This document shows positions 5,290-53,269 of a DNA stretch of 64,000 nucleotides, one piece after another; position 1 is the first letter of the stretch, and each line of letters opens with the position of its first letter. The notes beneath the pieces were generated by a model. It was not told the DNA's origin. It was given only the letters and a program-made list of their open reading frames with translations, and searched no databases. Source of the stretch: Macrostomum lignano (Eukaryota); NCBI GenBank assembly GCA_002269645.1, contig NIVC01000558.1:472261-536260 (forward strand), read 5' to 3'. The translations under genes and the position numbers were made by a program.

Positions 5290-6441
5290 TCAGGCTGCTC
5301 GATCTGGAGCTTGAGCCACGTTAGCGCGGCCGCCTGCTGCGTTCGACTCCCGATGAGACATCAAATCTGCCATCAGCTTTGAAAAGTACACACGAAATTG
5401 CGGATTTCGCCGCATAACTATTGGAAAACTGCATGACTGGCCGATCAAAGACAGGGATCCAATGATAGCTAGAGAGTTCACCATTGTCCGCGAGGTATCA
5501 TCAGTTGGATCAGCAGAGTAACCCCGGATTGTCAGGGCCCAGTAGAGAGCGACTGTAGGAAGCTGAGCAACCAATCTCACCATTGCCAAGAGCAGCACAA
5601 CAATGGCTCCGTTTACTCCGTCGTGTCCTGGCGGCCCGTTTGCACTGCTGGGTGCATTGGCATGCCTTTCGAGGTTGTGCTTTCTTGCCCAGACAAGTCT
5701 CGTAATGAAGAACAGCAGGCCCAGATTCAGTAGCAGAACCGTAACCAGAATTACACTTGGCGGATTGCAGATTAGACTCCAGTAGAGCAAGGCAAGATTG
5801 TCGTTCGTTTCGAAGAAGCAGGCCACGATTATGCTTCCATTTGAGTTTGTAAAAGACCTTCGTTTGCCAGCTAAGATAGGCGGTATGGACAGCAAAGCCG
5901 ATGCGAGCACAGCTACCAGCATTGCGCGCAAGGCGGTCTTAGGACCAAAAGTTCTGAATCGAAACGGCGCCAAAAATGACATTGCTCTGTCAGCTACCAT
6001 CATCAATAGTACCGATGCGGACATCAACGGGCAGACAGTGATGATTGACATGTACATTTTGCAGCCCAAATATCCGTCATTCTGCATGATGTAGCCAACA
6101 GTGCCACCGCTGAGCCAGGGAAGTCCTCTGCTCAAAAAGAAGTTCACTAATCCGAACACAGGCATGGATACAGAGTCTGCAAGAGCGACGCCGCCAACGT
6201 AGACATTCTGCCGATTGATGGGTCGGATTTTTACCAGCATGCCGTAGGCAACAAAGCCGTTACCAAGGAAACCAAGAAGGATGATGAGCGGAAGCAGACA
6301 GCCGCAGGCAATACCCGCTATCTTGGCCGTGATGCAACGAATCTGTCTAACTGAGTCGCCTCCAAAGCATTCAACCAGCAGGATGAACATGTTGTGATAG
6401 TAGATTATTCCACCCGAGGAGCTGGCCGACGTCGAATTCAT
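5290..6441 (-). CDS. Intronless class A (rhodopsin-like) orphan GPCR, 383 aa
   Basis: About seven hydrophobic segments; TM1 GFLGN, TM2 LALAD, TM3 DRA (DRY-like), Cys in extracellular loops 1 and 2, TM6 AQLP. Confidence 0.85.
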   Translation of the reverse strand: MNSTSASSSGGIIYYHNMFILLVECFGGDSVRQIRCITAKIAGIACGCLLPLIILLGFLGNGFVAYGMLVKIRPINRQNVYVGGVALADSVSMPVFGLVNFFLSRGLPWLSGGTVGYIMQNDGYLGCKMYMSIITVCPLMSASVLLMMVADRAMSFLAPFRFRTFGPKTALRAMLVAVLASALLSIPPILAGKRRSFTNSNGSIIVACFFETNDNLALLYWSLICNPPSVILVTVLLLNLGLLFFITRLVWARKHNLERHANAPSSANGPPGHDGVNGAIVVLLLAMVRLVAQLPTVALYWALTIRGYSADPTDDTSRTMVNSLAIIGSLSLIGQSCSFPIVMRRNPQFRVYFSKLMADLMSHRESNAAGGRANVAQAPDRAA

Positions 6442-6775
6442 GGTGGGTACTTTTCTACGGAAAATTGTTTTAAACGAGAAAAACTGATGAAACTAAAGAC
6501 TTACGCGTTTGAAGATGAATTAAGACAGCTTCTGCCGTTCGTGGTTTCCTTCTAGCCCTTGGACCAGTCAAGCCAGGTTTAGCAAGTTCCAGTTTTCCCA
6601 TTTTATTGGATAATGGAAAACTATTGGACACTTTAATTGGGACGGTTTTTGTCTGTTGCCTATTTCGGTAATGGATGTTTTCACTAGTCCAGTAGTACTG
6701 CATGTAGTCCTAGTCAGGGACAAATCTCCTCCGGAGTTCAATTAGTCCGTCTAAAATTTTCATCAGTGCCATGAG

Positions 6776-7696
6776 ACTACTATATGAACCCGTATGGCGC
6801 GATTTTGGAGGTGAGGTGGGTGTCAACCCTCCTCGCCTCTCATTGGCTGGCGCCCCGATCACTAGGTGATCGATACCCGTATCGATATCGGCGCTCGGCG
6901 CGCGCGCGCCGCAGGCGCGTGGCGCCAAGCGCCGCAGGCGACCCTCCCCAGCCACCGGCGACCCTCCCCAGCCGCAGGCGCACCTACCGATATTAGATCC
7001 CAATAAATCAATCAGATCCCAAATCAATCAGATCCCAAGCGCACCCTCCCGAGCCGCAGGCGCCCATGCCGCAGGCACCCCGAGTGTACACTCTACCGAG
7101 CCGCAGGCACCCCGAGTGTACACTCTACCGAGCCACAGGCACCCCGAGTGTACACTCTACCGAGCCGCAGGCACCCCGAGTGTACACTCTACCGATATGT
7201 ACACTCTACCACTCTCCCGATATGTAGTCAACGATATTAGGCTAGTGAAAACTACTTATAGTAGGTGAAATTGAGTATATTTACATAAAAATGTAGATAA
7301 AACATATTGGTAGGTGAATAATGACGCATATTGCATATTAAAATGTACATATTGGAGCATATGAGCAGCAAAAACACACAATGTAGGTGTATGGGCAGAA
7401 ATAGACAAAGCAGGTACTGTAGGCGCTACATAGGTGGAAATACACACACACACAGCAGGTTTACAAAGTGTACTTTCGATACATATCGGATTAATGTATA
7501 AAGCGGGTTTACAAGGCATGCATAAGGCGTAGTTGTATAATGCAGGTGCGCATGTATAATCAGATTATAGGCAAACGCCCAGGTGCAACAGACGCGTAAA
7601 TAATGTCACACCGACTAAAGAGTAAATATTGTCTAACCCGCAGGTGCATAAAAATTTTAAACAAAAGCGGTTCGGGGAAATCCCAAAAGGGAGGTT
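6776..7696 (+). repeat. Left terminal inverted repeat (921 bp)
   Basis: Reverse complement of 15370-16290; identity stops after ...CAAAAGGGAGGTT; the same spurious 70-aa and 87-aa ORFs are predicted in both copies. Confidence 0.95.
7068..7195 (+). repeat. About 4 copies of a 32-bp tandem repeat inside the TIR (mirror copy ~15871-15998)
   Basis: Unit CCGAGCCGCAGGCACCCCGAGTGTACACTCTA with a GTGTACAC palindrome; no spacers. Confidence 0.9.
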
Positions 7697-8010
7697 TTAG
7701 CCGCCCGTTTTCGCCACCGCCGCCGCCGCCCTAACCCTCTTATAGGTACAATTGCGTTGAAAGTATTTCGAGTCATTAGGTTGTAATGACCCTCCATATT
7801 TTAGGTGGGTGGACTCGAGCCCGGGGCCAGCCCATTTCAGTTTTTTGGGCCGGCCCCTCTGCCAATTTCCTCCCTAGGAGCGAGCTATCAGAATTGGTCT
7901 TTTAACCCCCGTGTATACACCCATAGAGGCCCCCCAGCTAGCGCCCATTCTAACCTACCCAGTGTACAGTGTTGGGTTCCCCAAACCGCGTACAAAGAGA
8001 AATACCCTTA

Positions 8011-9025
8011 TCAGTCAATCTCCATACGCTCCCTCAGGGCTGTCTCGTACGCGGCCTCTTCCTCCACGCTCTCGAAGCAGTAGTCGGATGACTGGCAATG
8101 TGGAAATTATAACAGTCAATGTAGATAGAATATATGCAAGGTATATGATTAGATGAGTTGTGTATATAATGTAATATCTTACCAAATCTAAATCGTCCTC
8201 CAGCCGCCACAGACGTAGAGACGCTGTATAGCGCACCAACGAAAGGTGCTCCTCCCAGTTGGAGGGCCATGCGACGGGCTCATCCCACGCAGTTGGCCGC
8301 GCTCCCGGACCGGCCAGGTACGCCTCAGAGTCGGGGGCATACGAATTGCGCCCCATCAACCAGTCCTGGTGCAGAGTCTCAGCCTCCAACACCTCCCGTA
8401 GGCCGGCACCCCTCGCAACCAAAGTATCAAGAACCCGATTAAAGGCTCTGACAAAGGTAGCTTGGGAGGGCAGCCCGCCAGGATGCCGAGACCTCAGCCA
8501 GTCAATGTCCCCGCGGAAAAATGAGGCCACAATGCGAGGAAAGCGCTCACGAACCACGGCGATCTCCTCAGACATATCCTCGTCCTCGTCGTCGAAGAGA
8601 AGGAGCGTAGCGGCTGATGATATTGAGGCCCGGTGGGAGGTAGTTGAAGCAGCAGCAGAGACGGGCGTAGTAGAGGCGGCAGCAGCAGAGACGGGCGCAG
8701 CAGAGGCAGGGCCGGTTGTGGTCAGCTCCTCAACAGAGACGTCAAAGAGGGCGGCTGAGGCGGTAGTCAAATCGGAGGCAGTAGCAGCAGGGGCACCGTT
8801 CACAACCCCGCCGATAGCCAGCAGCGGGAGGTCAAAAACTTCAGACTCGGTGTCGCTATCATAGGACATAGCCCAAGCTAGATATTGATCAGCCTCCCAA
8901 TTATCAGTTCCGTTGTTTTCAGTGCCTAGGGGAACTATGTGTTCAGGGATATCCCCGTCGAGGCTGGTTAACTCTTCAGTCGGGCGATTATTATCCCAGA
9001 GGTTGGATAGAGCTCGGCGGGACAT
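8011..9025 (-). CDS. Element ORF3: acidic/low-complexity protein of unknown function, ~307 aa, 2 exons (9025-8183, 8091-8011)
   Basis: ATG at 9025 downstream of TATATAA (9098-9104) and a CCAAT box (9130-9134); 91-bp GTAAGA...CCAG intron (8182-8092) gives an in-frame acidic tail SSDYCFESVEEEAAYETALRERMEID*. Confidence 0.7.
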
Positions 9026-9140
9026 GCTAGAATCAACAGAGAGTAAAGTATTAGAGCTGAGATAGGGTTTGACTCTCTGGAGAGGGGGAAACACTAATTA
9101 TATAGACGGATCGAGTGAGGCGGTGCGAACCAATAGGAAA

Positions 9141-9673
9141 CTAGCAGTCCCAACCCTCGTTAAACAGATTTTCCCAGGGTGGAGATTGGTAGGGTTTGAG
9201 ACCCATGAGCTGAAGAACATCCACCTCAGTCCCGGCTACCGGAGGCGTGTCTGTCTTGACTCGCTTGGCTGGAGGGGGTGCCTCAGGTGCCGGCTTGAAG
9301 AGCTTGTCCAAACGGGCGGCAAACATCCGGCGCCACAGTTCAGGCGTGAATTCGATCGTGTAGCGCCAATTAAACTTTGGGTCCTGATTGAGCCAATTGC
9401 GCAGCAAACGGATCCTCCCTCGCGAAGCTTCAACTGCCTTGAAATTGCCCAACAGGACCCGCTTGTTCACGTGAAGGCGGGCAGCAGCCTCCAGGTCAGG
9501 GCGCGCGCTTCGAGCTTCTTCCACTCTGGCTCGGCCAAGTAGATTGCAGGGAAGCCGTCCTTCCACACTCCGGCCTCGTTGGTGTAGAGACGCCGAATTT
9601 CAATCAAGTTGTGTTCAGTTTCAAATGTGGGCTTCCGCGCCACAAAGTTTTCGTATAGAGAGATAGAAGACAT
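9141..9673 (-). CDS. PC4/Sub1-like ssDNA-binding protein, ~177 aa after repairing one -1 frameshift near 9500
   Basis: LIEIRRLYTNEAGVWKDGFPAIYLAEPEWKKLE resembles the PC4 core (IDIREYW...[20 protein letters not shown]). It joins ORF 9141-9566 if one C is added to GCCCTGAC; the second half looks like a second PC4-like repeat followed by a PPPAKRVK NLS-like motif. Confidence 0.65.
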
Positions 9674-9915
9674 GATTTAGCAGCAGCAGCAGCAGAGAGC
9701 TCTCTGACAGCCGTGCAGCGCCTTATATACCCCCGGGTGGAGGGTGGGGTGGGTGATGATTTTGGGGTGATTTTTGATGATTTTGGTTGGTTTTTGGCGA
9801 TTTATCCAATAACAGGCGAGCTGAGCAGATTTTTTAGTATATATACAGACCCCCAGAGCCAGGGTAGAGAGTTAAATCCTTCTCTCTCCGCTCTCTCACG
9901 CTCTCTGTTTGCAAA
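9674..9915. promoter_or_regulatory. Putative bidirectional Pol II promoter between the PC4-like gene and pPolB
   Basis: TATATAA on the - strand at ~9723-9729, TATATATA at 9838-9845 and CCAAT at 9806-9810, between head-to-head ATGs at 9673 and 9916. Confidence 0.55.
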
Positions 9916-12900
9916 ATGGCTAAACGCAGCGCCAACGCAACTGCTTTCCTGGCTGACAAGAGGCAACGTCTTTATGGTAAGTTTTAATTAATTTCTGTCT
10001 AGACTGTAGTTGCTAGGGTGGGGGTAGGGGCTGAGCAGCAGCAGCAGCTGCAGGGTCTGTGGGACCGCAGAGTAAACAACAAAGACTGCTGCGACAGCTG
10101 CAGGGGTCTAGACTGGAGTTGCTAGGGTGGGGTGCTGCGGCAGGGTCTGTAACAGAGAGTTGCAGGGGAGGGCTAGACAAGTTTCAGCCGGGTGTGTGCT
10201 GATAAGAAATTGCTGCTAGGGGGGTGTTGTCCAGACAGGCTGCAGCTGGGGTGCAAATTGCTGCGACAGAGAGTTGCAGGGGTGAGTAAACAAAGACTGG
10301 GGTGGGGGGGTTGTCTAGACAGGGAGGGGTGTGCTGATAAGAAATTGCTGCAAAAACAGACAGTTGCTAGGGTGCTGCGGCAGATAAGAAATTGCTGCAG
10401 AATCGTTGGGGCAGGCTAGACAAGTTACAGCCAGGTGGGGGCAGAGAGTTGCTGGGACTGTGTAGCGCGGGGACAGACTGATAAGAAATTGGCAGGGGCG
10501 CTACCCAGACAGGCTGCAGCTAGGTGCAAATTGCTGCGACAGAGAGTTGCAGGGGTGAGTAAACAAAGACTGCTGCGACAGGCTGCAGCGGGGGTGCAGA
10601 TAAGAAATTGCAGAGAGTTGCTGCGGGGACAGCAGAGTAAACTCTGTTAAGAAATTGCTGGGGCTAGGGCGGGGAAACACGCTGGGGCCAGGAAAATGAC
10701 AGATTCTTCTGGTTTTTTATCTCCTTGTGTTTTTTCAGACGCGTTTGTCCCGCCAACACAGCCGGAATCTGTTACCGGACCGGGTGAGTTATCCAGCCCC
10801 CCATTTCCCACACAGACCCTAGCTGACTCACACTCCCCCATTCCCCCCATGCAGGTTTTACGGCCAGGCTGGATAATCAGCGTGACCTGCCCAAGTTTAG
10901 GGCAAAGGGTGTCGAGTATGTGGTGCATATTACCAACACCGAAGATTTGCGGGAGGTGTTTGCTGACATGCTCGAAGTTTTCAAGCAAGATTTGGCTGGT
11001 GATGACTTTATGGCCGCGAAATTCGAGAGCGATAACATGCTCAAAGCGGCTCATACTCCCCCGGTGCGTGCAGCCCGCATGACAGCAGAGTTGTTGTTTA
11101 AGCACATTGACAAGATTGTACAGTCGGATGCCACTGTCCTGACGGGCAACTTTTCTATCCGGTTGCTAAAGGCCTGGGTGCCTCGAGGTGGATGTGCTCT
11201 CGAGAACAAGCATCTAGAAGAGCGGCACGCCTTCTCCCGGCACTATGTCCGCATCAACAACACGGACAAGAGATGCTTGCTGCGCGCTCTGGTCGTGGCC
11301 TGCGCCTACCTGCAATTCGTGGCCAAGTCCATCACCAAGCGGGTGTGGCACACAATCAAGGCCAATTCGCCCACGCAGACTAAGCTGGTGGCTGAGCTAC
11401 AAATCGAAGCTGGCCTCTACACGGTAAGTTGTGTACCGATAAGAATTTTTACACAGTATCGTGGAATACTAAAATTTTCTGATAAGAATTTTTACGATAA
11501 GGAATACTAAAAGAATTTTTACACAGTATCATGGAGTACTAAAAGATATATTTTCTGATAAGAATTTTTACACAGTATCATGGAATACTAAAATTTTCTG
11601 ATAAGAAATTTTACGATAAGGAATACTAAAAGAAATATTTTACCCTCCACACAGACTCTTCAAACCGTCTCGCAGGCTGGTCCTTTCGGCGTGGATGCAC
11701 TGCCCGAAGCGATCCGTGCCCTGAACCGGCTGCATCCGGGCGCGATTTTGGTGTACGCGTGTACCGCGCAGAGGAGGCCAACAGGTGCATCTTCAACCTG
11801 CCTGGCACCGAGATTCTGCACCTACACCTGGTCGAGCAGCACTTTAATGTGGTTACCAAGCTGCCTGCGTTTTTCGGCAGCCACCACTACTGCCCCAAGT
11901 GCGAGATGGCCTATGATAGCGAACCCGCCAAGCACAAGTGCGCTGATGCCTGCAGTACATGCAAGACTCCGGGCTCCAACTGTAAGGCAAACCGCGCATA
12001 TGTAAGATGCCATGATTGCGGGCTAAATTGCTATAATGCTCAGTGCCTAGAAAATCACAAGCGCAAGAATAAGGCCGGCAGATCGCGCTGTGATTCGGTC
12101 CACGTTTGCGACACGTGTGGCTATCTAGAAGAACTAAAAGTAGGCCAGCCCCCTGAGCATCAGTGTGGTTACGCCAAGTGCCCAGTCTGCAAGCAGTACG
12201 ACGAAACTGCCACCCACGAGTGCTTTGTCACCCCGCCCAAAGCCAAAGAGTCTAGCGCCCCGTATGTTTACTATGATTTCGAGACGTACGTGGACTCTGG
12301 CAAGCAGCACCGGGTACACTTGGTTACGGCTGCCACCTCCTGCGAGGCGTGTCCCAAACTCTTCCCCAGGCCCCGCTGCAGCGCGTGCGGGGGACTACAC
12401 AGCTCAGCCAATTGCATTGCGGGACGCGATTTGGCACTCGATTTCACGAGCTGTGTCTCGCACAATGACTGTGCCTGTGGGATGCGAGAGTTTGTATCTG
12501 TCGGGCCGCACTCTATCGATGCCTTTTACTGCTGGCTGACTAGTGTGTTCAAGCAGGGGGCAATTGCTATTGCGCACAATGGCTCTGCGTATGACGCATT
12601 CCTCCTGCTCGGCGCCCTACTCAACGGACTGGCCAAGAAGAAGCCGCAAGTGATCTTCCAGAACAGCCGCCTAATGTATATGAAGTGCGACAAGATCACC
12701 TTCAAGGACAGCCTCAATTTCATCCCTATTGGTCTGGCGCAATTCCCAAAGGCGCTTGGTTTGGGCACCCAACTGACCAAAGGAGATTTCCCGCACGTCT
12801 TCAATCAGCCTCAAAATTGGGGGTACGTCGGTCCCTACTGCTCAATTGATATGTACGGCGGGAAGAAGAATAAGCAGCATGACTCCATCGCCGACTGGCT

Positions 12901-15015
12901 GGCCAAGCAGGAGGGACAGGTGTTTAATTTTAATAAGGAGTACCTGGACTACTGCCTGCAGGACACGTTAATTTTGCGGGAAGGCTGCCTGAAATATGCC
13001 CGCCTGATTAAGGACATTTGCGGACTGGACGCATTTGTTCAATCCAACACCATTGCGGGCTTGGCCATGTCGGTATTCACCACCAAGTTTATGGAGCCCA
13101 ACACTCTTGGGGTGATTTCCCGCCGGTCCGATGTACAGTCGCACAAGGCGCGGTGCTGGCTGGCACATTTAAATGCAACCGAGTTTGGCGGCCGGTTGCG
13201 GACAGCCGATTCTGGCGGCGAGGCTTTCGCCATGGGCCGTAAGGTCGACGGCTTCGACCCAGAGACCAGGACAGTGCTGCAGTTTCATGGCTGTTTCTTC
13301 CATGGCTGTCCCAAGTGCTTCCCCAACGGCGACGTGCTGCACCCGCTCAAGAACCAGCCAATGCGGGCAATTTATGAAGAGACGAGCGCTTCACCCGGCT
13401 GCTCTCCACTGCATACAATGTGCGTGTTCTGTGGGAGCACGACTATCAGGACGAGGGAGCGCCAGTCCAGCAGCCTATTCGCCTGGAGGAAGCCCTGTTT
13501 GGCGGCCGTACCGAGGCTTTTGTCCCGCACGCCGAGGCCACCGAGACTGTAGAGCTGCGCTATCGGGATGTGGTAAGTTTGTACACTTGTACACACACAG
13601 TTGACATGCGTTTGAGTTTATCTTATCCTTATCCCCTAGGTGTCGCTCTACCCGACTGTCAACAAGTTTGACAAGTACCCGGTCGGGCACCCGGTACACC
13701 ACCCCGAGCCTCATCTACTGGATGAGCTGCAGCTGGCCCGGTATTTTGGCATCGCCGAGGTGTCGATTCTGCCGCCAACCAATCTCCACATCCCGCTACT
13801 GCCCGCCAAGATTAACAAGAAGTTGGTTTTCGGCCTCTGCCGCGTCTGCATGGAGACCCAGTGCAGCAGCGAGTGTACACACACTGACGCTGAGAGAATG
13901 CTCCGCGGCACGTGGTCGACCCCAGAGCTCCACAAGGCCCTGCAGTTGGGTTACAAGCTGCAGTCAGTTCATGCCCTGGCCTATTGGACCGAGACTCGCA
14001 CGGGTCTGTTTGCAGATTATGTAAACACTTTTTTAAAGCTCAAAGCCGAGTCTAGCGGTTCGCCAGGGATGACTGAGGGCGCCAAGGCTGCCTACATGGC
14101 CAGCTTTTTCGAGCGCGAGGGCGTCCGGCTGGAAAAGGTGGAGGAGAATCCTGGCTTGCGCTTTGTGGCCAAGATTTTTCTAAACTCGTAAGTTTTTTCT
14201 ACTTGCAGTGGGGGCCGTGTTTTTCTACTTACAAAAAAAAATTTATTTTTCCCTGCAGGCTCTGGGGCAAATTCTGCCAGCGCGACGACCTGACCTCCAC
14301 AGAGATTGTGGACAGCTACGAGGCGTGGCTGCAGCGCCTGACCGACCCCTCGATCAAGGTCAAGTCGTGCGAGCCAATTGGGGAGAGCTTCATGATGCTC
14401 GAGTACAAGCCCCGATTTGGCGGTGCTGGCGAGCGGGCGTTCAAGTACGCTAATGTACCTATTGGCGTTTTCACCACCTCCCACGCCCGGCTGCGACTCT
14501 ACGAGGCTCTGGAGGGCCTAGGAACCCGCGTCATTTACGCCGATACCGATTCGTAAGTAATTTTTCCACTGTCTCTGTCTCTCTTTCTCCCCTTAACACT
14601 TTATTCTCCTCCTTCTCCCAGGGTTGTATACCGCTGCTCCCCGGGCGAGTACGAGCCTCCGGGCGGTTCGAGTTTGGGGCAGTGGACTGACGAGGTACCT
14701 GCTGGCTGCCGCATGGTACAGTTCACCACGGGAGGCCCCAAGCTCTACCGGTACTTAGTGGAGAAGCCCGACGGGTCGCTGTACTCGGTGCTCAAGTGCA
14801 AGGGCATCAGAGTCACCCCCGAGATTTCCGAGCGCGAGGACGAGCTGCAGGAAATTCTGCGCCACGGCGGGACTGTACGCCTGCCCCAGGCCCAGTTCAG
14901 GCGCGATAAGGCCAGCTGTACAATCCGGACCCTCGAGATGGACAAGACTTTCCAGCGAGTAATGACTAAGAGGGTGTATGGGGCCGCCAGCCGTCCGTAT
15001 GGCTTTCGTGAGTGA
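9916..15015 (+). CDS. pPolB: Protein-primed family B DNA polymerase (Polinton type), 7 exons: 9916-9976, 10739-10783, 10855-11423, 11676-13572, 13640-14187, 14259-14552, 14622-15015
   Basis: ExoI YYDFET, ExoII IAHNGSAYD, FKDSLNF, ExoIII YCLQDTLIL, ALFGGRTE; motif A YRDVVSLYP, motif B KIFLNSLWGKF and motif C YADTDSV are restored only by splicing GT-AG introns; all intron phases match. Exons total 3808 nt, plus 2 missing G = 1270 codons. Confidence 0.93.
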
Positions 15016-15369
15016 GTGAAAGATAAGGATCTGTCTTTGCACGCCTGGGATTCCCCTATGTGCCCACTTGGGATCCCTTGACTCGTGGGGATGAAAATGG
15101 TTTTACGCCCGCACTGTACTTAGGGGTCCTTACTCATTTGGCGCCTCCACTGTACATTGAGCGGGATCCCCTCAAGTGTTAAAACTCCCATTTGACACCT
15201 ATTCCCTCGGGGCGGTTTGTGGCCCAGCGGTCCGCCTCTTGGAGTAGAACTCCTGACATGAACTTGCTGCGCTGATTAGCGTACTGATAGCGCAATCGAA
15301 ATACGTCCATTTTTCTAGCCCACTTGTGGGTTTAATTGTGTTGAAAGTATATCGGGTCATTAGGCCGTG

Positions 15370-16290
15370 AACCTCCCTTTTGGGATTTCCCCGAACCGCT
15401 TTTGTTTAAAATTTTTATGCACCTGCGGGTTAGACAATATTTACTCTTTAGTCGGTGTGACATTATTTACGCGTCTGTTGCACCTGGGCGTTTGCCTATA
15501 ATCTGATTATACATGCGCACCTGCATTATACAACTACGCCTTATGCATGCCTTGTAAACCCGCTTTATACATTAATCCGATATGTATCGAAAGTACACTT
15601 TGTAAACCTGCTGTGTGTGTGTGTATTTCCACCTATGTAGCGCCTACAGTACCTGCTTTGTCTATTTCTGCCCATACACCTACATTGTGTGTTTTTGCTG
15701 CTCATATGCTCCAATATGTACATTTTAATATGCAATATGCGTCATTATTCACCTACCAATATGTTTTATCTACATTTTTATGTAAATATACTCAATTTCA
15801 CCTACTATAAGTAGTTTTCACTAGCCTAATATCGTTGACTACATATCGGGAGAGTGGTAGAGTGTACATATCGGTAGAGTGTACACTCGGGGTGCCTGCG
15901 GCTCGGTAGAGTGTACACTCGGGGTGCCTGTGGCTCGGTAGAGTGTACACTCGGGGTGCCTGCGGCTCGGTAGAGTGTACACTCGGGGTGCCTGCGGCAT
16001 GGGCGCCTGCGGCTCGGGAGGGTGCGCTTGGGATCTGATTGATTTGGGATCTGATTGATTTATTGGGATCTAATATCGGTAGGTGCGCCTGCGGCTGGGG
16101 AGGGTCGCCGGTGGCTGGGGAGGGTCGCCTGCGGCGCTTGGCGCCACGCGCCTGCGGCGCGCGCGCGCCGAGCGCCGATATCGATACGGGTATCGATCAC
16201 CTAGTGATCGGGGCGCCAGCCAATGAGAGGCGAGGAGGGTTGACACCCACCTCACCTCCAAAATCGCGCCATACGGGTTCATATAGTAGT
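15370..16290 (-). repeat. Right terminal inverted repeat (921 bp)
   Basis: Mirror of 6776-7696; ends ...GGTTCATATAGTAGT followed by TSD CATGAG. Confidence 0.95.
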
Positions 16291-16689
16291 CATGAGGGAC
16301 TCTGACAGTTCTAATTAGTTTTTAATAGCTCTAATAAATTAACTCGACATGCTGGTTGTGCCAAAACACGGGGCCATCATTTAATTGCTCTATAGCTCTA
16401 GGTAAGTCTAGGAGTCTGAATTGAATTACGAGGTATTTTCACTTGACGACCGTCCAAGTCAACAAATCCGACTAAGTGATCGACTTTTTAATTTATTAGA
16501 TGCTGTTTATTTCAGTTTAATTGCGACAACTCAACCAGTTTGGATAATTATTCTGTAGCTGGTTTTATTAACAAATTCTCCCTTGCTTCAACACTCTGCC
16601 TTTTGCCATTGAAAATATGAAATCAAAGGTCGAAAAACAGACCTAAGGCAAGGGCTACTAAAGTAGAAGGACGCCACACTCGAAATCTA

Positions 16690-21086: not shown

Positions 21087-22123
21087 GTAGGCTACAATCC
21101 CGAATGTACACGTACTTCCGTTTTTTGTATTTAAACAAATTTACTGTAAAATAAGCTATTTTAATTTTAGGATGAAATACTATAGGCTTCGCCCCCCCTT
21201 CATGACTCAGTCTTTAAACATAACGAAAATATTCTGGTTTCTGATCATATCTCTTTACTGTTCAAAGCAACAGGCCGGGAGTTCAGATTTTTGCTGCTGA
21301 ACTCTCTGATTGCTGACGAAAGCAAGCCTGAGGAGGCTCTGGGAGGATACTGGGAAGATCCTCACAGCGTGCCCAGCGGCAGGCTTTAACTCAGAACTGA
21401 AGAAAAGGTATAAGGCTGTTGGCTAAGGTGAGGCACTTTATCTAAAATTTCAGAGGGACAGCGTCAGCATCTCAAAACCAGAGCCCGTTACCCCCTTCCC
21501 TCTCTTGAGCCCCTATTTCACAGTGCCTGCCAAGCAGTCCTTAGAGAAACGCGAATGTGAGCGTAAATTTGTCTTAAGAATCTCAAATCTAATGAAATTC
21601 TAACATCGGATGATGACGTGAGAAGTAAATAGTGTGGCAGGAAAAAGCAACAGAGAATGCAATGAAAAAATCTGCACCGCTTTTGCTAACGAAAGCAGCA
21701 GAAAAAGCAGACAGTTGAGACTGAAAAACTCTAACAATGAGACGCTGACGGATTAAAAAAAATTGCAAAATTCACGCAGAAATGCATTTGAACAATCCGA
21801 GCGCTGCACTGGGATTCTACGCGTGAAGGAGCAGCCACTGGCAGCAACCCAGCCTCCCAAAGGCATCGCACAGTAAACCGTTTTCTCTGTCGCTATGGCA
21901 ACACGACGCTGAATTCAGCGCAGACAGCAACAGAAAGACAACAAAGAAGACAACAAAGCTTCATCGGGAACGACTGGCTCGACTCTGCGCCCCGCGCTGC
22001 CATCGCAACGCCCGCCACCCCAAATGGGGAGTTGGGAAACTGCATAAAAGCCGCAGTCGTGCAGCAGGCGAGAGACACAAAAGCGACAAGCACATCCCAT
22101 CTCTGTAAGACTCTCCACAGACC

Positions 22124-23185
22124 ATGCAGACTTTGTCAATTCTGCCGCTGATTCTCTGCTGCTGCATCGCTTTCGGCCACTCGCTAAGCACTGAATTCGG
22201 CCTGTTAGGCTGCTTTGTGGACACCGCAACTCGAGATGTCAACGGTCTGGATGGCTGGTCCACCATCGGGCCCTACTCGGTGACGTGGAGCTCCGGGGGG
22301 ACCGTCACACTCAGCAGCATGACTGTGCAGCTTTGCAGCGAAATCTGCGCCTATGGAAAATTCCGCTACTTTGGCGTTCAGTTTTCAAGTTATTGTTTCT
22401 GCGGAAACTCATATGGCCGACACGGCAAGGCAGCTGACAGCCACTGCAACATGGCGTGCGCTGGCAACTCCGCCCAAATCTGTGGAGGGGCTGATCGAAA
22501 CTCCGTGTACCGGCAGATCTACTATCGTCAAGGTGAGCGTAGCGGAATCTACAATCGGCACTGTTCTAATTCAAAATGTACATGCACTTCTCCCATTGCA
22601 CTGGGCATAGCATCCATGGTTTAACACGCATTTAGACACAAATAAATCAATATTTTCCGGAGAGCTGCGGGCGCCCTGGTGAAACATCGTCCCACAACAA
22701 AGGTTTAGCTCGTAGTCCATTTTCAGCCCGTTCCGCTGAGTCCTGAGCTCGTACAAGAGCACTTATACTGTATGCAGGCACGCACACATGACACACGCTC
22801 ACTCAGGGCGCACAGCATGCCAACTTTTTGAAAAACAATATAACCTATGAATGCAGGTTTGGCATGTGATCAACAGACGTCGACATGTCGAACGAAGCAC
22901 TCGTGTTGGTCTCACCAGAGTAGCGACGCACTCGATATCTCTTTTGTCATTCCAGAAGGCGAATACTTCACTTTGGTTGACCGAGACTACGTGAACGTGA
23001 CCTCTACCAGCGGGCCCTTCTACCGCACCGAGCAGCCCGTCAGGAGTCTAGTTGAGTGCGTGTATCGCTGCGAAGCTGACTGCCAGGCCGTGCTGTTCCA
23101 CCTCGACGCCTGCCACCTGCTGAGATTCCCCGTTCTGCCGCACGAGCTGAAGACCGTGGCTGGGAAGTTCGCCATCCGTGTGTGA
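22124..23185 (+). CDS. Secreted WSC-domain + PAN/apple-like protein, 2 exons (22124-22532, 22857-23185)
   Basis: Signal peptide; WSC signature GCFVD...MTVQLCSEIC...YFGVQFSSYCFCG...CNMACAGNSAQICGG; phase-1 GTGAGC...TGCAG intron; SLVECVYRC...CQAVLF...C is PAN-like. Confidence 0.8.
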
Positions 23186-47689: not shown

Positions 47690-50600
47690 AGAGATGAGTG
47701 AAAAGGAGGAGAGGAAAGAAGAGGAGAGATGTAATTGATGAAGGAAGAGAAGATAGGAAAGAAGAGGAGAGAAGGGAGAGAAGGGAGAGAAGGGAGAGAA
47801 GAGAAGAGAAGAGAGAGAAGAGGAGAGAAGGGAGAGAAGAGAAGAGAAGGGAGAGAAGGGAGAGAAAGGAGAGAAGAGAAGAGAAGGAAGAGAAGAGGAA
47901 AGAAGGGAGAGAAGGGAAAGAAGGGAGAGAAGGGAGAGAAGGGAGAGAAGGGAGAGAAGGGAGAGAAGAGGAGAGAAGGAGAGGAAAGAAGGGAGAGAAG
48001 GGAGAGAAGGGAGAGAAGGGAGAGAAGAGGAGAGAAGGAGAGGAAAGAAGGGAGAGAAGGGAGAGAAGGGAGAGGAGGGGAAAGAAGGGAGAGAAGCGGA
48101 GAGAAGGGAGAGAAGGGAGACAAGGGAGAGAAGGGAGAGAAGAGGAGAGAAGGAGAGGAAAGAAGGGAGAGAAGGGAGAGAAGGGAGAGGAGGGGAAAGA
48201 AGGGAGAGAAGGGAGAGAAGGGAGAGAAGGGAGAGAAGAGAAGAGAAGAGAGAGAAGGGAGAGATGGAGAGAAGGGAGAGAAGGGAGAGAAGGGAGAGAA
48301 GAGGAGAGAAGGAGAGGAAAGAAGGGAGAGAAGGGAGAGAAGGGAGAGGAGGGGAAAGAAGGGAGAGAAGCGGAGAGAAGGGAGAGAAGGGAGACAAGGG
48401 AGAGAAGGGAGAGAAGGGAGAGAAGAGGAGAGAAGGAGAGGAAAGAAGGGAGAGAAGGGAGAGAAGAGGAGAGAAGGAGAGGAAAGAAGGGAGAGAAGGG
48501 AGAGAAGGGAGAGGAGGGGAAAGAAGGGAGAGAAGCGGAGAGAAGGGAGAGAAGGGAGAGAAGAGGAGAGAAGGAGAGGAAAGAAGGGAGAGAAGGGAAA
48601 GAAGGGAGAGAAGGGAGAGAAGGGAGAGAAGGGAGAGGAGGGAAAGAAGGGAGAGAAGGGAGAGAAGGGAGAGGAGGGAGAGAAGGGAGAGAAGGGAGAG
48701 AAGAGAAGAGAAGGAAGAGAAGAGGAGAGAAGGGAGAGAAGAGAAGAGAAGGGAGAGAAGACAGAGAAGGGAGAGAAGGGAGAGAAGAGGAGAGAAGGAG
48801 AGGAAAGAAGGGAGAGAAGGGAGAGAAGGGAGAGGAGGGGAAAGAAGGGAGAGAAGAGGAGAGAAGGGAGAGATGGAGAGAAGGGAGAGAAGGGAGAGAA
48901 GAGAGAGAAGAGGAGAGAAGGAGAGGAAAGAAGGGAGAGAAGGGAGAGAAGGGAGAGGAGGGGAAAGAAGGGAGAGAAGCGGAGAGAAGGGAGAGATGGA
49001 GAGAAGGGAGAGAAGGGAGAGAAGGGAGAGAAGAGGAGAGAAGGAGAGGAAAGAAGGGAGAGAAGGGAGAGAAGGGAGAGGAGGGGAAAGAAGGGAGAGA
49101 AGGGAGAGAAGGGAGAGGAGGGGAAAGAAGGGAGAGAAGCGGAGAGAAGGGAGAGAAGGGAGAGAAGAGGAGACAAGGAGAGGAAAGAAGGGAGAGAAGG
49201 GAAAGAAGGGAGAGAAGGGAGAGAAGGGAGAGAAGGGAGAGAAGGGAGAGAAGAGGAGAGAAGGAGAGGAAAGAAGGGAGAGAAGGGAGAGAAGGGAGAG
49301 AAGGGAGAGAAGAGAAGAGAAGAGAGAGAAGGGAGAGATGGAGAGAAGGGAGAGAAGGGAGAGAAGGGAGAGAAGAGGAGAGAAGGAGAGGAAAGAAGGG
49401 AGAGAAGGGAGAGAAGGGAGAGGAGGGGAAAGAAGGGAGAGAAGCGGAGAGAAGGGAGAGATGGAGAGAAGGGAGAGAAGGGAGAGAAGGGAGAGAAGAG
49501 GAGAGAAGGAGAGGAAAGAAGGGAGAGAAGGGAGAGAAGGGAGAGGAGGGGAAAGAAGGGAGAGAAGCGGAGAGAAGGGAGAGATGGAGAGAAGGGAGAG
49601 AAGGGAGAGAAGGGAGAGAAGAGGAGAGAAGGAGAGGAAAGAAGGGAGAGAAGGGAGAGAAGGGAGAGAAGAGGAGAGAAGGAGAGGAAAGAAGGGAGAG
49701 AAGGGAGAGAAGGGAGAGAAGGGAGAGGAGGGGAAAGAAGGGAGAGAAGAGGAGAGAAGAGAAGAGAAGGAAGAGAAGAGGAGAGAAGGGAGAGAAGAGA
49801 AGAGAAGGGAGAGAAGGGAGAGAAGGGAGAGAAGGGAGAGAAGAGAGAGAAGGGAGAGAAGAGAGAGAAGAGGAGAGAAGGAGAGGAAAGAAGGGAGAGA
49901 AGGGAGAGAAGAGGAGAGAAGGAGAGGAAAGAAGGGAGAGAAGGGAGAGAAGGGAGAGGAGGGGAAAGAAGGGAGAGAAGCGGAGAGAAGGGAGAGAAGG
50001 GAGAGAAGAGGAGAGAAGGAGAGGAAAGAAGGGAGAGAAGGGAAAGAAGGGAGAGAAGGGAGAGAAGGGAGAGAAGGGAGAGGAGGGGAAAGAAGTGAGA
50101 GAAGGGAGAGAAGGGAGAGGAGGGAGAGAAGGGAGAGAAGGGAGAGAAGAGAAGAGAAGGAAGAGAAGAGGAGAGAAGGGAGAGAAGAGAAGAGAAGGGA
50201 GAGAAGACAGAGAAGGGAGAGAAGGGAGAGAAGAGGAGAGAAGGAGAGGAAAGAAGGGAGAGAAGGGAGAGAAGGGAGAGGAGGGGAAAGAAGGGAGAGA
50301 AGCGGAGAGAAGGGAGAGATGGAGAGAAGGGAGAGAAGGGAGAGAAGGGAGAGAAGAGAAGAGAAGGAGAGGAAAGAAGGGAGAGAAGGGAGAGAAGGGA
50401 GAGGAGGGGAAAGAAGGGAGAGAAGCGGAGAGAAGGGAGAGATGGAGAGAAGGGAGAGAAGGGAGAGAAGGGAGAGAAGAGGAGAGAAGGAGAGGAAAGA
50501 AGGGAGAGAAGGGAGAGAAGAGAGAGAAGGGAGAGGAGGGGAAAGAAGGGAGAGAAGGGAGAGAAGGAAGAGAAGGGAGAGAAGAGGAGAGAAGGAGAGG

Positions 50601-52975
50601 AAAGAAGGGAGAGAAGGGAAAGAAGGGAGAGAAGGGAGAGAAGGGAGAGAAGGGAGAGAAGGGAGAGAAGAGGAGAGAAGGAGAGGAAAGAAGGGAGAGA
50701 AGGGAGAGAAGGGAGAGAAGGGAGAGAAGAGGAGAGAAGGAGAGGAAAGAAGGGAGAGAAGGGAGAGAAGGGAGAGGAGGGGAAAGAAGGGAGAGAAGCG
50801 GAGAGAAGGGAGAGAAGGGAGACAAGGGAGAGAAGGGAGAGAAGAGGAGAGAAGGAGAGGAAAGAAGGGAGAGAAGGGAGAGAAGGGAGAGGAGGGGAAA
50901 GAAGGGAGAGAAGCGGAGAGAAGGGAGAGATGGAGAGAAGGGAGAGAAGGGAGAGAAGGGAGAGAAGAGGAGAGAAGGAGAGGAAAGAAGGGAGAGAAGG
51001 GAGAGAAGGGAGAGGAGGGGAAAGAAGGGAGAGAGCGGAGAGAGAGAGAGGAGAGAAGGGAGAGAAGGAGAGAAGGGAGAGAAGGGAGAGGAGAGGGAAA
51101 GAAGGGAGAGAAGGGAGAGAAGGGAGAGAAGAGGGAGAGAAGAAGGAGAGAAGGAGAGAAGGGAAGGAGAGAGAGGAGAGAAGAGGAGAGAAGAGAAGAG
51201 AAGAGGAGAGAAGGGAGAGAAGAGGAGAGAAGGGAGAGAAGGGAGAGAAGGGAGAGAAGGGAGAGAAGAGGAGAGAAGGAGAGAAGAGAAGGGAGAGAAG
51301 AGGAGAGAAGGGAGAGAAGGGAGAGAAGAGAAGAGAAGAGAGAGAAGGGAGAGAAGGAGAGAAGGGAGAGAAGGGAGAGAAGGGAGAGAAGAGAGAGAAG
51401 GAGAGGAAAAAAGGGAGAGAAGGGAGAGAAGGGAGAGGAGGGGAAAGAAGGGAGAGAAGCGGAGAGAAGGGAGAGAAGGGAGACAAGGGAGAGAAGGGAG
51501 AGAAGGGAGAGAAGAGGAGAGAAGGAGAGGAAAGAAGGGAGAGAAGGGAGAGAAGAGGAGAGAAGGAGAGGAAAGAAGGGAGAGAAGGGAGAGAAGGGAG
51601 AGGAGGGGAAAGAAGGGAGAGAAGCGGAGAGAAGGGAGAGAAGGGAGAGAAGAGGAGAGAAGGAGAGGAAAGAAGGGAGAGAAGGGAAAGAAGGGAGAGA
51701 AGGGAGACAAGGGAGAGAAGGGAGAGAAGGGAGAGAAGGGAGAGAAGGGAGAGAAGAGGAGAGAAGGGAGAGAAGGGAGAGAAGGGAGAGAAGCGGAGAG
51801 AAGGGAGAGAAGGAAGAGAAGGGAGAGAAGGGAGAGAAGAGGAGAGAAGGAGAGGAAAGAAGGGAGAGAAGGGAGAGAAGAGGAGAGAAGGAGAGGAAAG
51901 AAGGGAGAGAAGGGAGAGAAGAGGAGAGAAGGAGAGGAAAGAAGGGAGAGAAGGGAGAGAAGGGAGAGGAGGGGAAAGAAGGGAGAGAAGGGAGAGAAGG
52001 GAGAGGAGGGAGAGAAGAGGAGAGAAGAGGAGAGAAGGGAGAGAAGGGAGAGAAGGGAGAGAAGCGGAGAGAAGGGAGAGAAGGGAGAGAAGGGAGAGAA
52101 GGGAGAGAAGAGGAGAGAAGGAGAGGAAAGAAGGGAGAGAAGGGAGAGAAGAGGAGAGAAGGAGAGGAAAGAAGGGAGAGAAGGGAGAGAAGAGGAGAGA
52201 AGGAGAGGAAAGAAGGGAGAGAAGGGAGAGAAGGGAGAGGAGGGGAAAGAAGGGAGAGAAGGGAGAGAAGGGAGAGGAGGGAGAGAAGGGAGAGAAGAGG
52301 AGAGAAGAGGAGAGAAGGGAGAGAAGGGAGAGAAGGGAGAGAAGAGGAGAGAAGGAGAGGAAAGAAGGGAGAGAAGGGAGAGAAGAGGAGAGAAGGAGAG
52401 GAAAGAAGGGAGAGAAGGGAGAGAAGAGGAGAGAAGGAGAGGAAAGAAGGGAGAGAAGGGAGAGAAGAGGAGAGGAGGGGAAAGAAGGGAGAGAAGGGAG
52501 AGAAGGGAGAGGAGGGAGAGAAGAGGAGAGAAGAGGAGAGAAGGGAGAGAAGGGAGAGAAGGGAGAGAAGCGGAGAGAAGGGAGAGAAGGGAGAGAAGGG
52601 AGAGAAGGGAGAGAAGAGGAGAGAAGGAGAGGAAAGAAGGGAGAGAAGGGAGAGAAGAGGAGAGAAGGAGAGGAAAGAAGGGAGAGAAGGGAGAGAAGAG
52701 GAGAGAAGGAGAGGAAAGAAGGGAGAGAAGGGAGAGAAGGGAGAGGAGGGGAAAGAAGGGAGAGAAGGGAGAGAAGGGAGAGGAGGGAGAGAAGGGAGAG
52801 AAGAGGAGAGAAGAGGAGAGAAGGGAGAGAAGGGAGAGAAGGGAGAGGAGGGAGAGGAGGGAGAGAAGGGAGAGAAGGGAGAGGAGGGGAAAGAAGGGAG
52901 AGAAGGGAGAGAAGGGAGAGGAGGGGAAAGAAGGGAAAGAAGGGAGAGAAGGGAGAGAAGGGAGAGAAGGAGTCA
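47690..52975 (+). repeat. 5.3-kb polypurine/polypyrimidine tract (GAAGGGAGAGA-type units)
   Basis: The + strand is almost exclusively G and A; higher-order blocks marked by rare AAGCGGAG, GAGACAAG and GAGATGG variants. Confidence 0.97.
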
Positions 52976-53269
52976 AAGTGTTGTATTTGTCCAGCTGGCC
53001 CACTTAAGCGAGAAAAGTCAGAGATTTCCCAGGAAATTTGGTAAAATTTTACACAGCAACATTTTTTGTCAATGTCGCTCACTGCAAGGAGCAAATTTAC
53101 CTGACACTGCATGCTTACTGGCAGATTCCGGTTTTACTTCGGAAAACGCTGGAATAACAAATTTAATAATCTGCTAATAGCCCTTATATTGTATCTTAAT
53201 CTTCTGTCCAAGTGTGTGTCTTTGTGTCAGTCTGTTTTTGCACCTGTCTGCCAGCGCCAAAACGAGTAC

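Follow-up and report, generated by a model that had tools for sequence, protein, structure and literature searches.

The element and its genes

The window analysed here, 64,000 nucleotides of contig NIVC01000558.1, comes from Macrostomum lignano, which is also the host named by the UniRef labels of near-identical proteins. It contains a gene for a protein-primed family-B DNA polymerase (pPolB) that is interrupted by six introns. The gene sits inside a 9,515-bp element (6776-16290) bounded by terminal inverted repeats (TIRs) of 921 bp each. The left TIR (6776-7696, plus strand) starts with ACTACTA, the right TIR (15370-16290, minus strand) ends with TAGTAGT, and the two are 100% identical. A 6-bp target site duplication (TSD) flanks the element, with its left copy at 6770-6775 and its right copy at 16291-16296. 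The original prediction, made from the sequence alone, overlooked this TIR- and TSD-bounded element without integrase or capsid genes, and also three frameshifts in the window copy.

pPolB is encoded on the plus strand in seven exons. Exon 1 (9916-9976, ATG at 9916) encodes a basic, Lys- and Arg-rich peptide that is a possible nuclear localisation signal. Intron 1 (9977-10738, 762 bp, phase 1), exon 2 (10739-10783) and intron 2 (10784-10854, 71 bp, phase 1) precede exon 3 (10855-11423), which holds the N-terminal region with a conserved Cys motif. After intron 3 (11424-11654, 231 bp, phase 0, acceptor corrected here), exon 4 (11655-13572) contains a putative vOTU His, a Cys-rich region, the exonuclease motifs, a VSR-like insert and the first half of motif A, within which intron 4 (13573-13639, 67 bp, phase 0) is placed. 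Exon 5 (13640-14187) and exon 6 (14259-14552) are separated by intron 5 (14188-14258, 71 bp, phase 2), within motif B. Intron 6 (14553-14621, 69 bp, phase 2) lies at the end of motif C, and exon 7 (14622-15015) carries the KxY motif and the stop codon.

The protein matches PF03175 above the cut-off, and its placement in a tree agrees with a Polinton/Maverick pPolB. Following the domain order given in 10.1101/2024.03.18.585575, the N-terminus in exon 3 would be the terminal-protein domain and its conserved Cys the catalytic Cys of a vOTU domain. The vOTU motifs and domain identity were assigned by eye; the putative Cys and His are invariant in our alignment (A1). The VSR-like insert is suggested by an FHGC.FHGC-like motif. 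One relative with this motif is annotated as a very-short-patch endonuclease, and the isolated piece has no match in Pfam.

Two further open reading frames (ORFs) lie on the minus strand. ORF A (9141-9673; 177 amino acids in other copies) is transcribed divergently from pPolB. The intergenic region between them (9674-9915), where TATA-like words were read by eye on both strands, may serve as a bidirectional promoter. ORF A is predicted to adopt a PC4/Sub1 family fold. It aligns with PC4 genes of the intronless Polintons resident in the same genome (E 5e-9), five of the seven members of that alignment match Pfam PC4, and the joint profile matches human PC4 (E 6e-9). Taken by itself, ORF A is not matched by Pfam PC4, and the alignment used took in Pfam-positive homologues. 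Its structural model scores 77 in the predicted local distance difference test (pLDDT), against only 36 for the fold from the single sequence, and the top Foldseek matches are PC4 (probability 1.0, E about 6e-3, none at 0.001). By analogy with PC4, ORF A would bind single-stranded DNA. ORF B (8015-9026) is an orphan, acidic and Ala-rich, with no usable match in Pfam or Atlas.

Splicing of the polymerase gene

Four public runs were aligned to window positions 7700-15370. Three of them (X1, X6 and X7, from three studies) are RNA-like by the guess of the tool, and the fourth (X15) is DNA-like. The run data are contigs, from which tissue, strand and retention level cannot be read. GT..AG joints are found for introns 1, 3, 5 and 6 in all three RNA-like runs and for introns 2 and 4 in two of the three; among the joints listed, the DNA-like run has none at these introns (0/1). 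A single contig of 1230 nt from X1 covers exons 5, 6 and 7 with both introns spliced out. The six pPolB introns are thus real GT..AG (U2) spliceosomal introns, removed in the RNA-like runs and present in DNA. ORF B behaves in the same manner: a seventh GT-AG intron of 91 bp near its 3' end (8092-8182, minus strand) shows a joint in 3/3 RNA-like runs and in 0/1 DNA-like run, and the position of the ORF B stop may shift after splicing. Splice dinucleotides are intact in all copies scored, 15-17 per site. A database protein of the same family (P0183, ALD16274.1) is continuous over junctions 4-6 at 98-100% identity; its origin could not be traced in the accessible text of the host papers PMC4490696 (including its four supplements), PMC4604429 and PMC5173321.

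All six donors lie where the original prediction had placed them (9977, 10784, 11424, 13573, 14188 and 14553), and so do five acceptors (10738, 10854, 13639, 14258 and 14621). The acceptor of intron 3 had been set at 11675, an in-frame AG 21 nt downstream of the true end at 11654. The downstream AG has no listed joint, while 11654 is used in 3/3 RNA-like runs. In a second family of the element (described below), the acceptor of intron 3 aligns to the window codon in seven of nine loci, the other two being unscored. Four introns had been described as 67-71 bp long, in agreement with lengths of 71, 67, 71 and 69 bp. As stated, RDV|VSLYP, LNS|LWG and YADTDS|V are interrupted by introns 4, 5 and 6, respectively, and the spliced joints looked for in the RNA-like runs are found at all six introns.

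The consistent phase claimed for the introns does not extend to the reading frame of the window copy, which is out of frame in exon 4 through two frameshifts near 11740 and 13383; a third one lies in ORF A near 9506. The two in exon 4 are absent from 16 of the 17 other aligned copies, and the one near 9506 from 12 of the 13 other copies whose alignment covers the site. Run contigs likewise differ from the window at the three sites. Since other copies show scattered private single-base differences of their own, the frameshifts of the window point to assembly error, with private decay also possible. Programmed frameshifting in exon 4 was considered and is ruled out by the restriction of the shifts to the window copy.

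The six introns are mutually unlike, with only one 13-mer shared among the seven introns of the element, so that by comparison of these seven alone they do not appear to be introners, that is, repeated copies of one element. Introns 1 and 3 (9977-10738 and 11424-11654) hold internal short repeats, and their lengths differ between copies; the counterparts of introns 3 and 1 in the second family measure about 61 bp and 0.7-1.2 kb.

Any of the six introns, if retained, meets an in-frame stop within 1-99 codons, and for introns 5 and 6, which both split a TC|G codon, read-through stops one codon on. Because each retained intron brings an in-frame stop, pPolB depends on splicing, and the arithmetic behind this part of the original prediction holds. 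The same prediction suggested that the introns could be a germline- or tissue-specific switch in the manner of the P-element intron, which would limit the polymerase to germline or stem cells. Such a switch would agree with the stops, immediate in two introns, and with intron positions that are kept between families at saturated synonymous divergence. However, truncation by intron retention is common for introns and carries no implication of regulation. Spliced joints occur in 3/3 RNA-like runs from three studies, as contigs without tissue or retention level, and all six introns have ordinary strong splice sites with no single special intron among them. We consider a switch improbable.

Copies, a second family and the age of the introns

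The genome contains at least 17 further copies that are 91-97% identical to the window element (best 18 of 431 candidates scored), and a second family with ~65% amino-acid identity to this first one. A 6-bp TSD is present in 17/17 pPolB elements with both ends visible, 14 of family 1 and three of family 2; among the 14, C1640 and C1573 seem to be a single locus that occurs twice in the assembly, and one further copy has only a single end visible. The elements are 8.5-9.7 kb in size and all start with ACTAC. Copies with a different left half, considered as longer autonomous versions, are only 8.5-9.1 kb long and have longer TIRs and no ORF B. ORF B is found in only part of family 1, with one subfamily lacking it.

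The ratio of nonsynonymous to synonymous substitution rates (dN/dS) is 0.08-0.14 in 9/10 copies and 0.28 in one frameshifted copy. Against family 2 it is 0.09-0.11 in 4/5 comparisons, the fifth being saturated. By these estimates the polymerase is under purifying selection, with dN/dS of about 0.1 within and between families.

The comparison of intron positions in related elements, suggested with the original prediction, finds all six positions and phases common to family 2. Introns 3-6 occupy identical codons in nine family-2 loci (intron 3 scored in seven, intron 6 in eight), and one locus has an altered intron 5 donor. Intron 2 is found in 6/7 loci and intron 1 in 4/7, with phases that match family 1. 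As the six positions are common to both families and dS between them is saturated, the introns are old and predate the family split, which supports the earlier suggestion that the introns were gained long ago by a lineage resident in the nucleus. Their presence in all copies and in both families also makes them older than all these insertions.

This timing bears on two other origins, domestication of the locus as a host gene, or decay of a Polinton whose debris acquired introns once mobility had ended. Domesticated genes typically have introns, are transcribed and evolve under purifying selection, and the three frameshifts of the window copy would suit debris. Against this, the copies are many and dispersed, with differing 6-bp TSDs and near-identical TIRs, the introns predate the insertions, and the frameshifts are private to the window copy. 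Such an origin is very improbable and largely refuted.

In an alignment with 117 outside relatives, conservation was ranked over windows of 7 residues. The top two of these windows hold introns 6 and 5, and intron 4 ranks at the 86th-96th percentile, whereas introns 1-3 are in the least conserved tenth. The probability of at least three of six introns at such sites is 0.0037 (±5) or 0.043 (±3), for a threshold that was chosen post hoc, and the mean conservation over the six sites is not above random (P about 0.40). Clustering of introns in the catalytic motifs A-C thus appears modest. Inteins of family-B polymerases presumably insert in the same three motifs. One could suppose that introns 4-6 were selected there to shield conserved DNA from a sequence-specific attacker, for which the VSR/HNH nucleases in pPolBs, small RNAs or recombination would be candidates, in a manner akin to collaborative homing. 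The position of introns 5 and 6, the Endonuclease_7 domains carried by resident pPolBs and the discussion of collaborative homing for Polinton-like viruses (PLVs) in the accessible text of PMC11296320 speak for it. The ordinary six-site mean and the post hoc threshold do not; in addition, the VSR-like motif occurs in 67 of the 117 outside relatives, several of them probably intronless, and resident pPolBs share little sequence with that of the element. Shielding seems quite improbable to us.

Some observations concern individual copies. Several family-2 pPolB copies, direct and inverted, form a cluster at C157:56000-80000 (L086-L088), and ORFs resembling reverse transcriptases of long interspersed nuclear elements (LINEs) are inserted in family-2 copies, intron 1 included (L080, L082 and L130). 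At the place of ORF A, some family-2 copies carry a short stretch that resembles an ORF and is unrelated to it (L078:5100-5600, minus strand). Two inverted ORF A copies are seen at G000:C1090:38649-45784 and at C1157:266436-270934, as if captured by both TIRs. Several ORF-A-like genes with 37% identity are present on C1753 (L118) and C1176, possibly a third lineage; pPolB is absent from the single 6-kb stretch opened at these genes.

Ends, missing genes and possible sources of an integrase

In a tblastn comparison of 68 resident Polinton ORFs with 14 stretches, which comprised the window element, members of the family and passengers, only the PC4 gene matched, and no integrase, ATPase, protease or capsid gene was detected in the element by this search. 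Six-frame translation of 27 stretches gave 7,933 fragments, among which an integrase profile matched nothing but the positive control and a single ORF lying outside an element. The integrase ORF beside C1412 was rejected, as it lies outside the TSD in AT-rich, Polinton-like DNA. The uncoded space left in the window element is small, with little room for packaging ATPase, protease and capsid genes. A search of the genome with Pfam rve was dominated by long-ORF matches, probably long terminal repeat (LTR) elements (best 150 of 4300).

The ends ACTAC..GTAGT of the element differ from the AGTAGT..ACTACT of resident Polintons, which was found in five of the six examined at both ends, one being unresolved. 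A 6-bp TSD is present at 4/6 of these, and the resident integrase has 115 matches in the genome. Six base pairs is also the TSD length of Polinton integrases in the accessible text of PMC8097293. Non-coding elements with ACTACTA ends have a 6-bp TSD in 5/5 cases. They are foldbacks of 4-9 kb, some nearly fully palindromic (L117, L119-L123 and L127-L129), and are likely passengers of the same system, judging from their ends. The ACTAC end pattern has 587 matches in the genome and 169 in the control, an excess of about 420. Of the ACTAC-ended elements beyond the main copy lists, eight were opened, and an integrase of its own was seen in none of them. Resident Polintons and ACTAC elements are in places nested or adjacent (G000:C106:360392-372512; C271:277000-292000; C1412:125700-127475).

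We take these data to favour, with slightly better than even confidence, a self-replicating nuclear Polinton derivative that has kept only the replication module and is integrated by a borrowed resident Polinton integrase. Host RNA polymerase II would transcribe pPolB and ORF A divergently, and the spliceosome would remove six introns that are constitutive and go back to early gains in the lineage. pPolB would enter the nucleus by its exon 1 signal, prime at the short repeated ends and copy a linear form, while the PC4-like protein would coat the displaced strand and pairing of the TIRs would keep them alike. A Polinton-type integrase acting in trans, most likely from the abundant resident intronless Polintons, would insert the new copies. 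Introns would be tolerated since there is no capsid to impose a packaging limit and expression is always nuclear, and they would be a mark of domestication to nuclear life and no switch.

Several points weigh against this reading. The helper integrase is not proven because resident Polinton ends differ, and resident integrases would need to work on ends whose terminal bases are altered. Between the resident pPolBs and that of the element the relationship is only distant, and three family-2 copies are without a recognisable ORF A. None of the runs read as RNA is recorded as RNA, and the observations include neither a linear form nor a terminal protein nor a new insertion. The placement of three of six introns in catalytic motifs is not predicted by a neutral model. 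Few of the 587 end matches were opened, so an ACTAC-ended carrier of an integrase is possible: the best 100 were listed, and the 11-18 kb pairs on C56, C4, C104 and C237 are outside the opened set.

The same replication module could instead be served by a dedicated, ACTAC-specific integrase encoded elsewhere, on a second segment or in an autonomous master family, and possibly split by introns. The end motif is family-specific and kept over two families at saturated dS, there are hundreds of ACTAC-type ends with some pairs 14-21 kb apart, and an intron-split gene is hard to spot exon by exon. However, the ACTAC elements opened gave no such gene: those of 4-9 kb, considered as an integrase or capsid segment, are non-coding foldbacks (L117, L119-L123), a 21-kb element with an integrase on C106 is a canonical Polinton nested in a foldback, and C89 is a family-2 copy that has decayed and contains a LINE-like insert. 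No integrase fragment was found in the 27 stretches. We regard a dedicated integrase as unlikely. Both the splicing switch and intron shielding would be compatible with either source of integrase.

Relation to known Polintons

The closest outside relatives of the polymerase are proteins of 1000-1700 amino acids with at most 42% identity. Several are from metagenome or Logan contigs and are therefore probably single ORFs. Among 1.84 billion representatives, the proteins of the host itself are followed by a gap down to about 40% identity. A FastTree of 49 proteins, with two resident pPolBs as its root, joins families 1 and 2 in a single clade (support 1.0). This clade is placed among outside animal-type pPolBs and is remote from the three HNH-bearing resident pPolBs included. 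The polymerase thus nests, by this tree, among animal VSR-type Polinton pPolBs, many of which have the VSR-like motif. No intronless VSR-type pPolB was found among the best 40 of 427 candidates in the M. lignano genome. Viral contigs gave no match to protein P0007 as query; with alignment A1 as query, a partial pPolB was found in three ankyrin-rich viral contigs of 339-733 kb (L124-L126:10001-11068). An intronless HNH-bearing pPolB on C2285 (L104-L105), with an open frame of up to 1478 amino acids, adjoins a dUTPase gene.

The element shares with Polintons a protein-primed family-B DNA polymerase, long TIRs and a TSD of 5-8 bp. Polymerase and integrase together define the Polinton group. The element works like a Polinton replicon and departs from the Polinton definition in integrase, capsid, intronless genes and ends. 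Its nearest published counterparts are marine nematode and mollusc Polintons with VSR-bearing pPolB2 (10.1101/2023.08.22.554363), which likewise combine a pPolB that has a VSR-like insert with long TIRs and a TSD of 6 bp. In contrast to these, which are 13-25 kb long, the element measures 8.5-9.7 kb, carries six spliceosomal introns and ACTAC ends, and is without detected integrase, ATPase, protease or capsid. The best explanation is that it descends from a VSR-type Polinton, in a minimal form adapted to the nucleus. Vertebrate Mavericks (PMC8097293) share the 6-bp TSD and have ends with short repeated motifs of 6 bp, and the 5'-AC type end (AC)3A of one fish is a precedent for the AC-type end seen here. 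Unlike the element, intact ones carry 7-8 core ORFs without introns, and their ends are mostly (AGT)2//(ACT)2 or (AG)3//(CT)3. Resident Polintons (C114, C393, C110, C106 and C2506) share the 6-bp TSD, and the C114, C393, C110 and C106 types have a PC4-like gene homologous to ORF A. They differ in integrase, ATPase and capsid-type ORFs, in AGTAGT ends and in long, uninterrupted pPolBs that are HNH-bearing or of a separate clade.

The original prediction stated as known that Polinton/adintovirus pPolB genes are usually single long ORFs. This stands for published Maverick cores, whose genes are intronless in the accessible text of PMC8097293 and 10.1101/2022.07.12.499685, and does not hold for the second family, which shares all six introns. 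Introns in Polinton-like elements are already in print, as far as the sources could be consulted: dinoflagellate proviruses carry repeated introners, mostly judged to be gains after integration (PMC11957031), nematode Mavericks have introns in captured host cargo genes (10.1101/2022.07.12.499685), and PLVs have group I introns. In contrast to the dinoflagellate and nematode cases, the element has six unlike introns in its core polymerase, which are spliced and inherited by mobile copies. We found no published account of a spliced Polinton pPolB or of M. lignano Polintons in the accessible literature; subscription journals, Repbase, Dfam and bioRxiv supplements may hold one.

Non-autonomous Polintons rely on helpers. 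Cytoplasmic linear plasmids are, in the accessible text of 10.1101/2024.03.18.585575, Polinton descendants that have lost the capsid and kept pPolB, as the element has. Unlike either group, the element is nuclear, spliced, integrated with TSDs, and retains a selected polymerase with a PC4-like gene. As a tentative possibility, it could represent a distinct class of self-synthesising nuclear satellites, a Polinton lineage pared down to a spliced pPolB and a PC4-like protein, with its own end code and giant foldback passengers, which uses the integrase and perhaps the capsid of an unrelated Polinton and in which the introns at motifs A-C were selected to protect the polymerase DNA that is most conserved. 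Such a class would parallel, within the nucleus, the route that leads from Polintons to cytoplasmic linear plasmids.

The lineage departs from the rules of an intronless core and of polymerase with integrase, yet has recent-looking insertions and a selected polymerase. It shows a virus-derived gene with six intron gains that are fixed, and is a natural case in which to ask about the passage from virus to purely nuclear transposon, while a pPolB expressed in a tractable animal offers a place to look for protein-primed Polinton replication. ORF surveys that require polymerase and integrase, as in PMC8097293, would miss such elements, which are therefore perhaps more widespread.

Outside the element, a rhodopsin-family G-protein-coupled receptor (7tm_1) in a single long ORF (5290-6492) lies just left of the insertion. 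A secreted protein with a WSC-like motif, read by eye, is encoded at 22109-23185. Many tandem arrays with units of 8-210 bp occupy 29300-60000, including a GA-rich tract at ~47700-53000.

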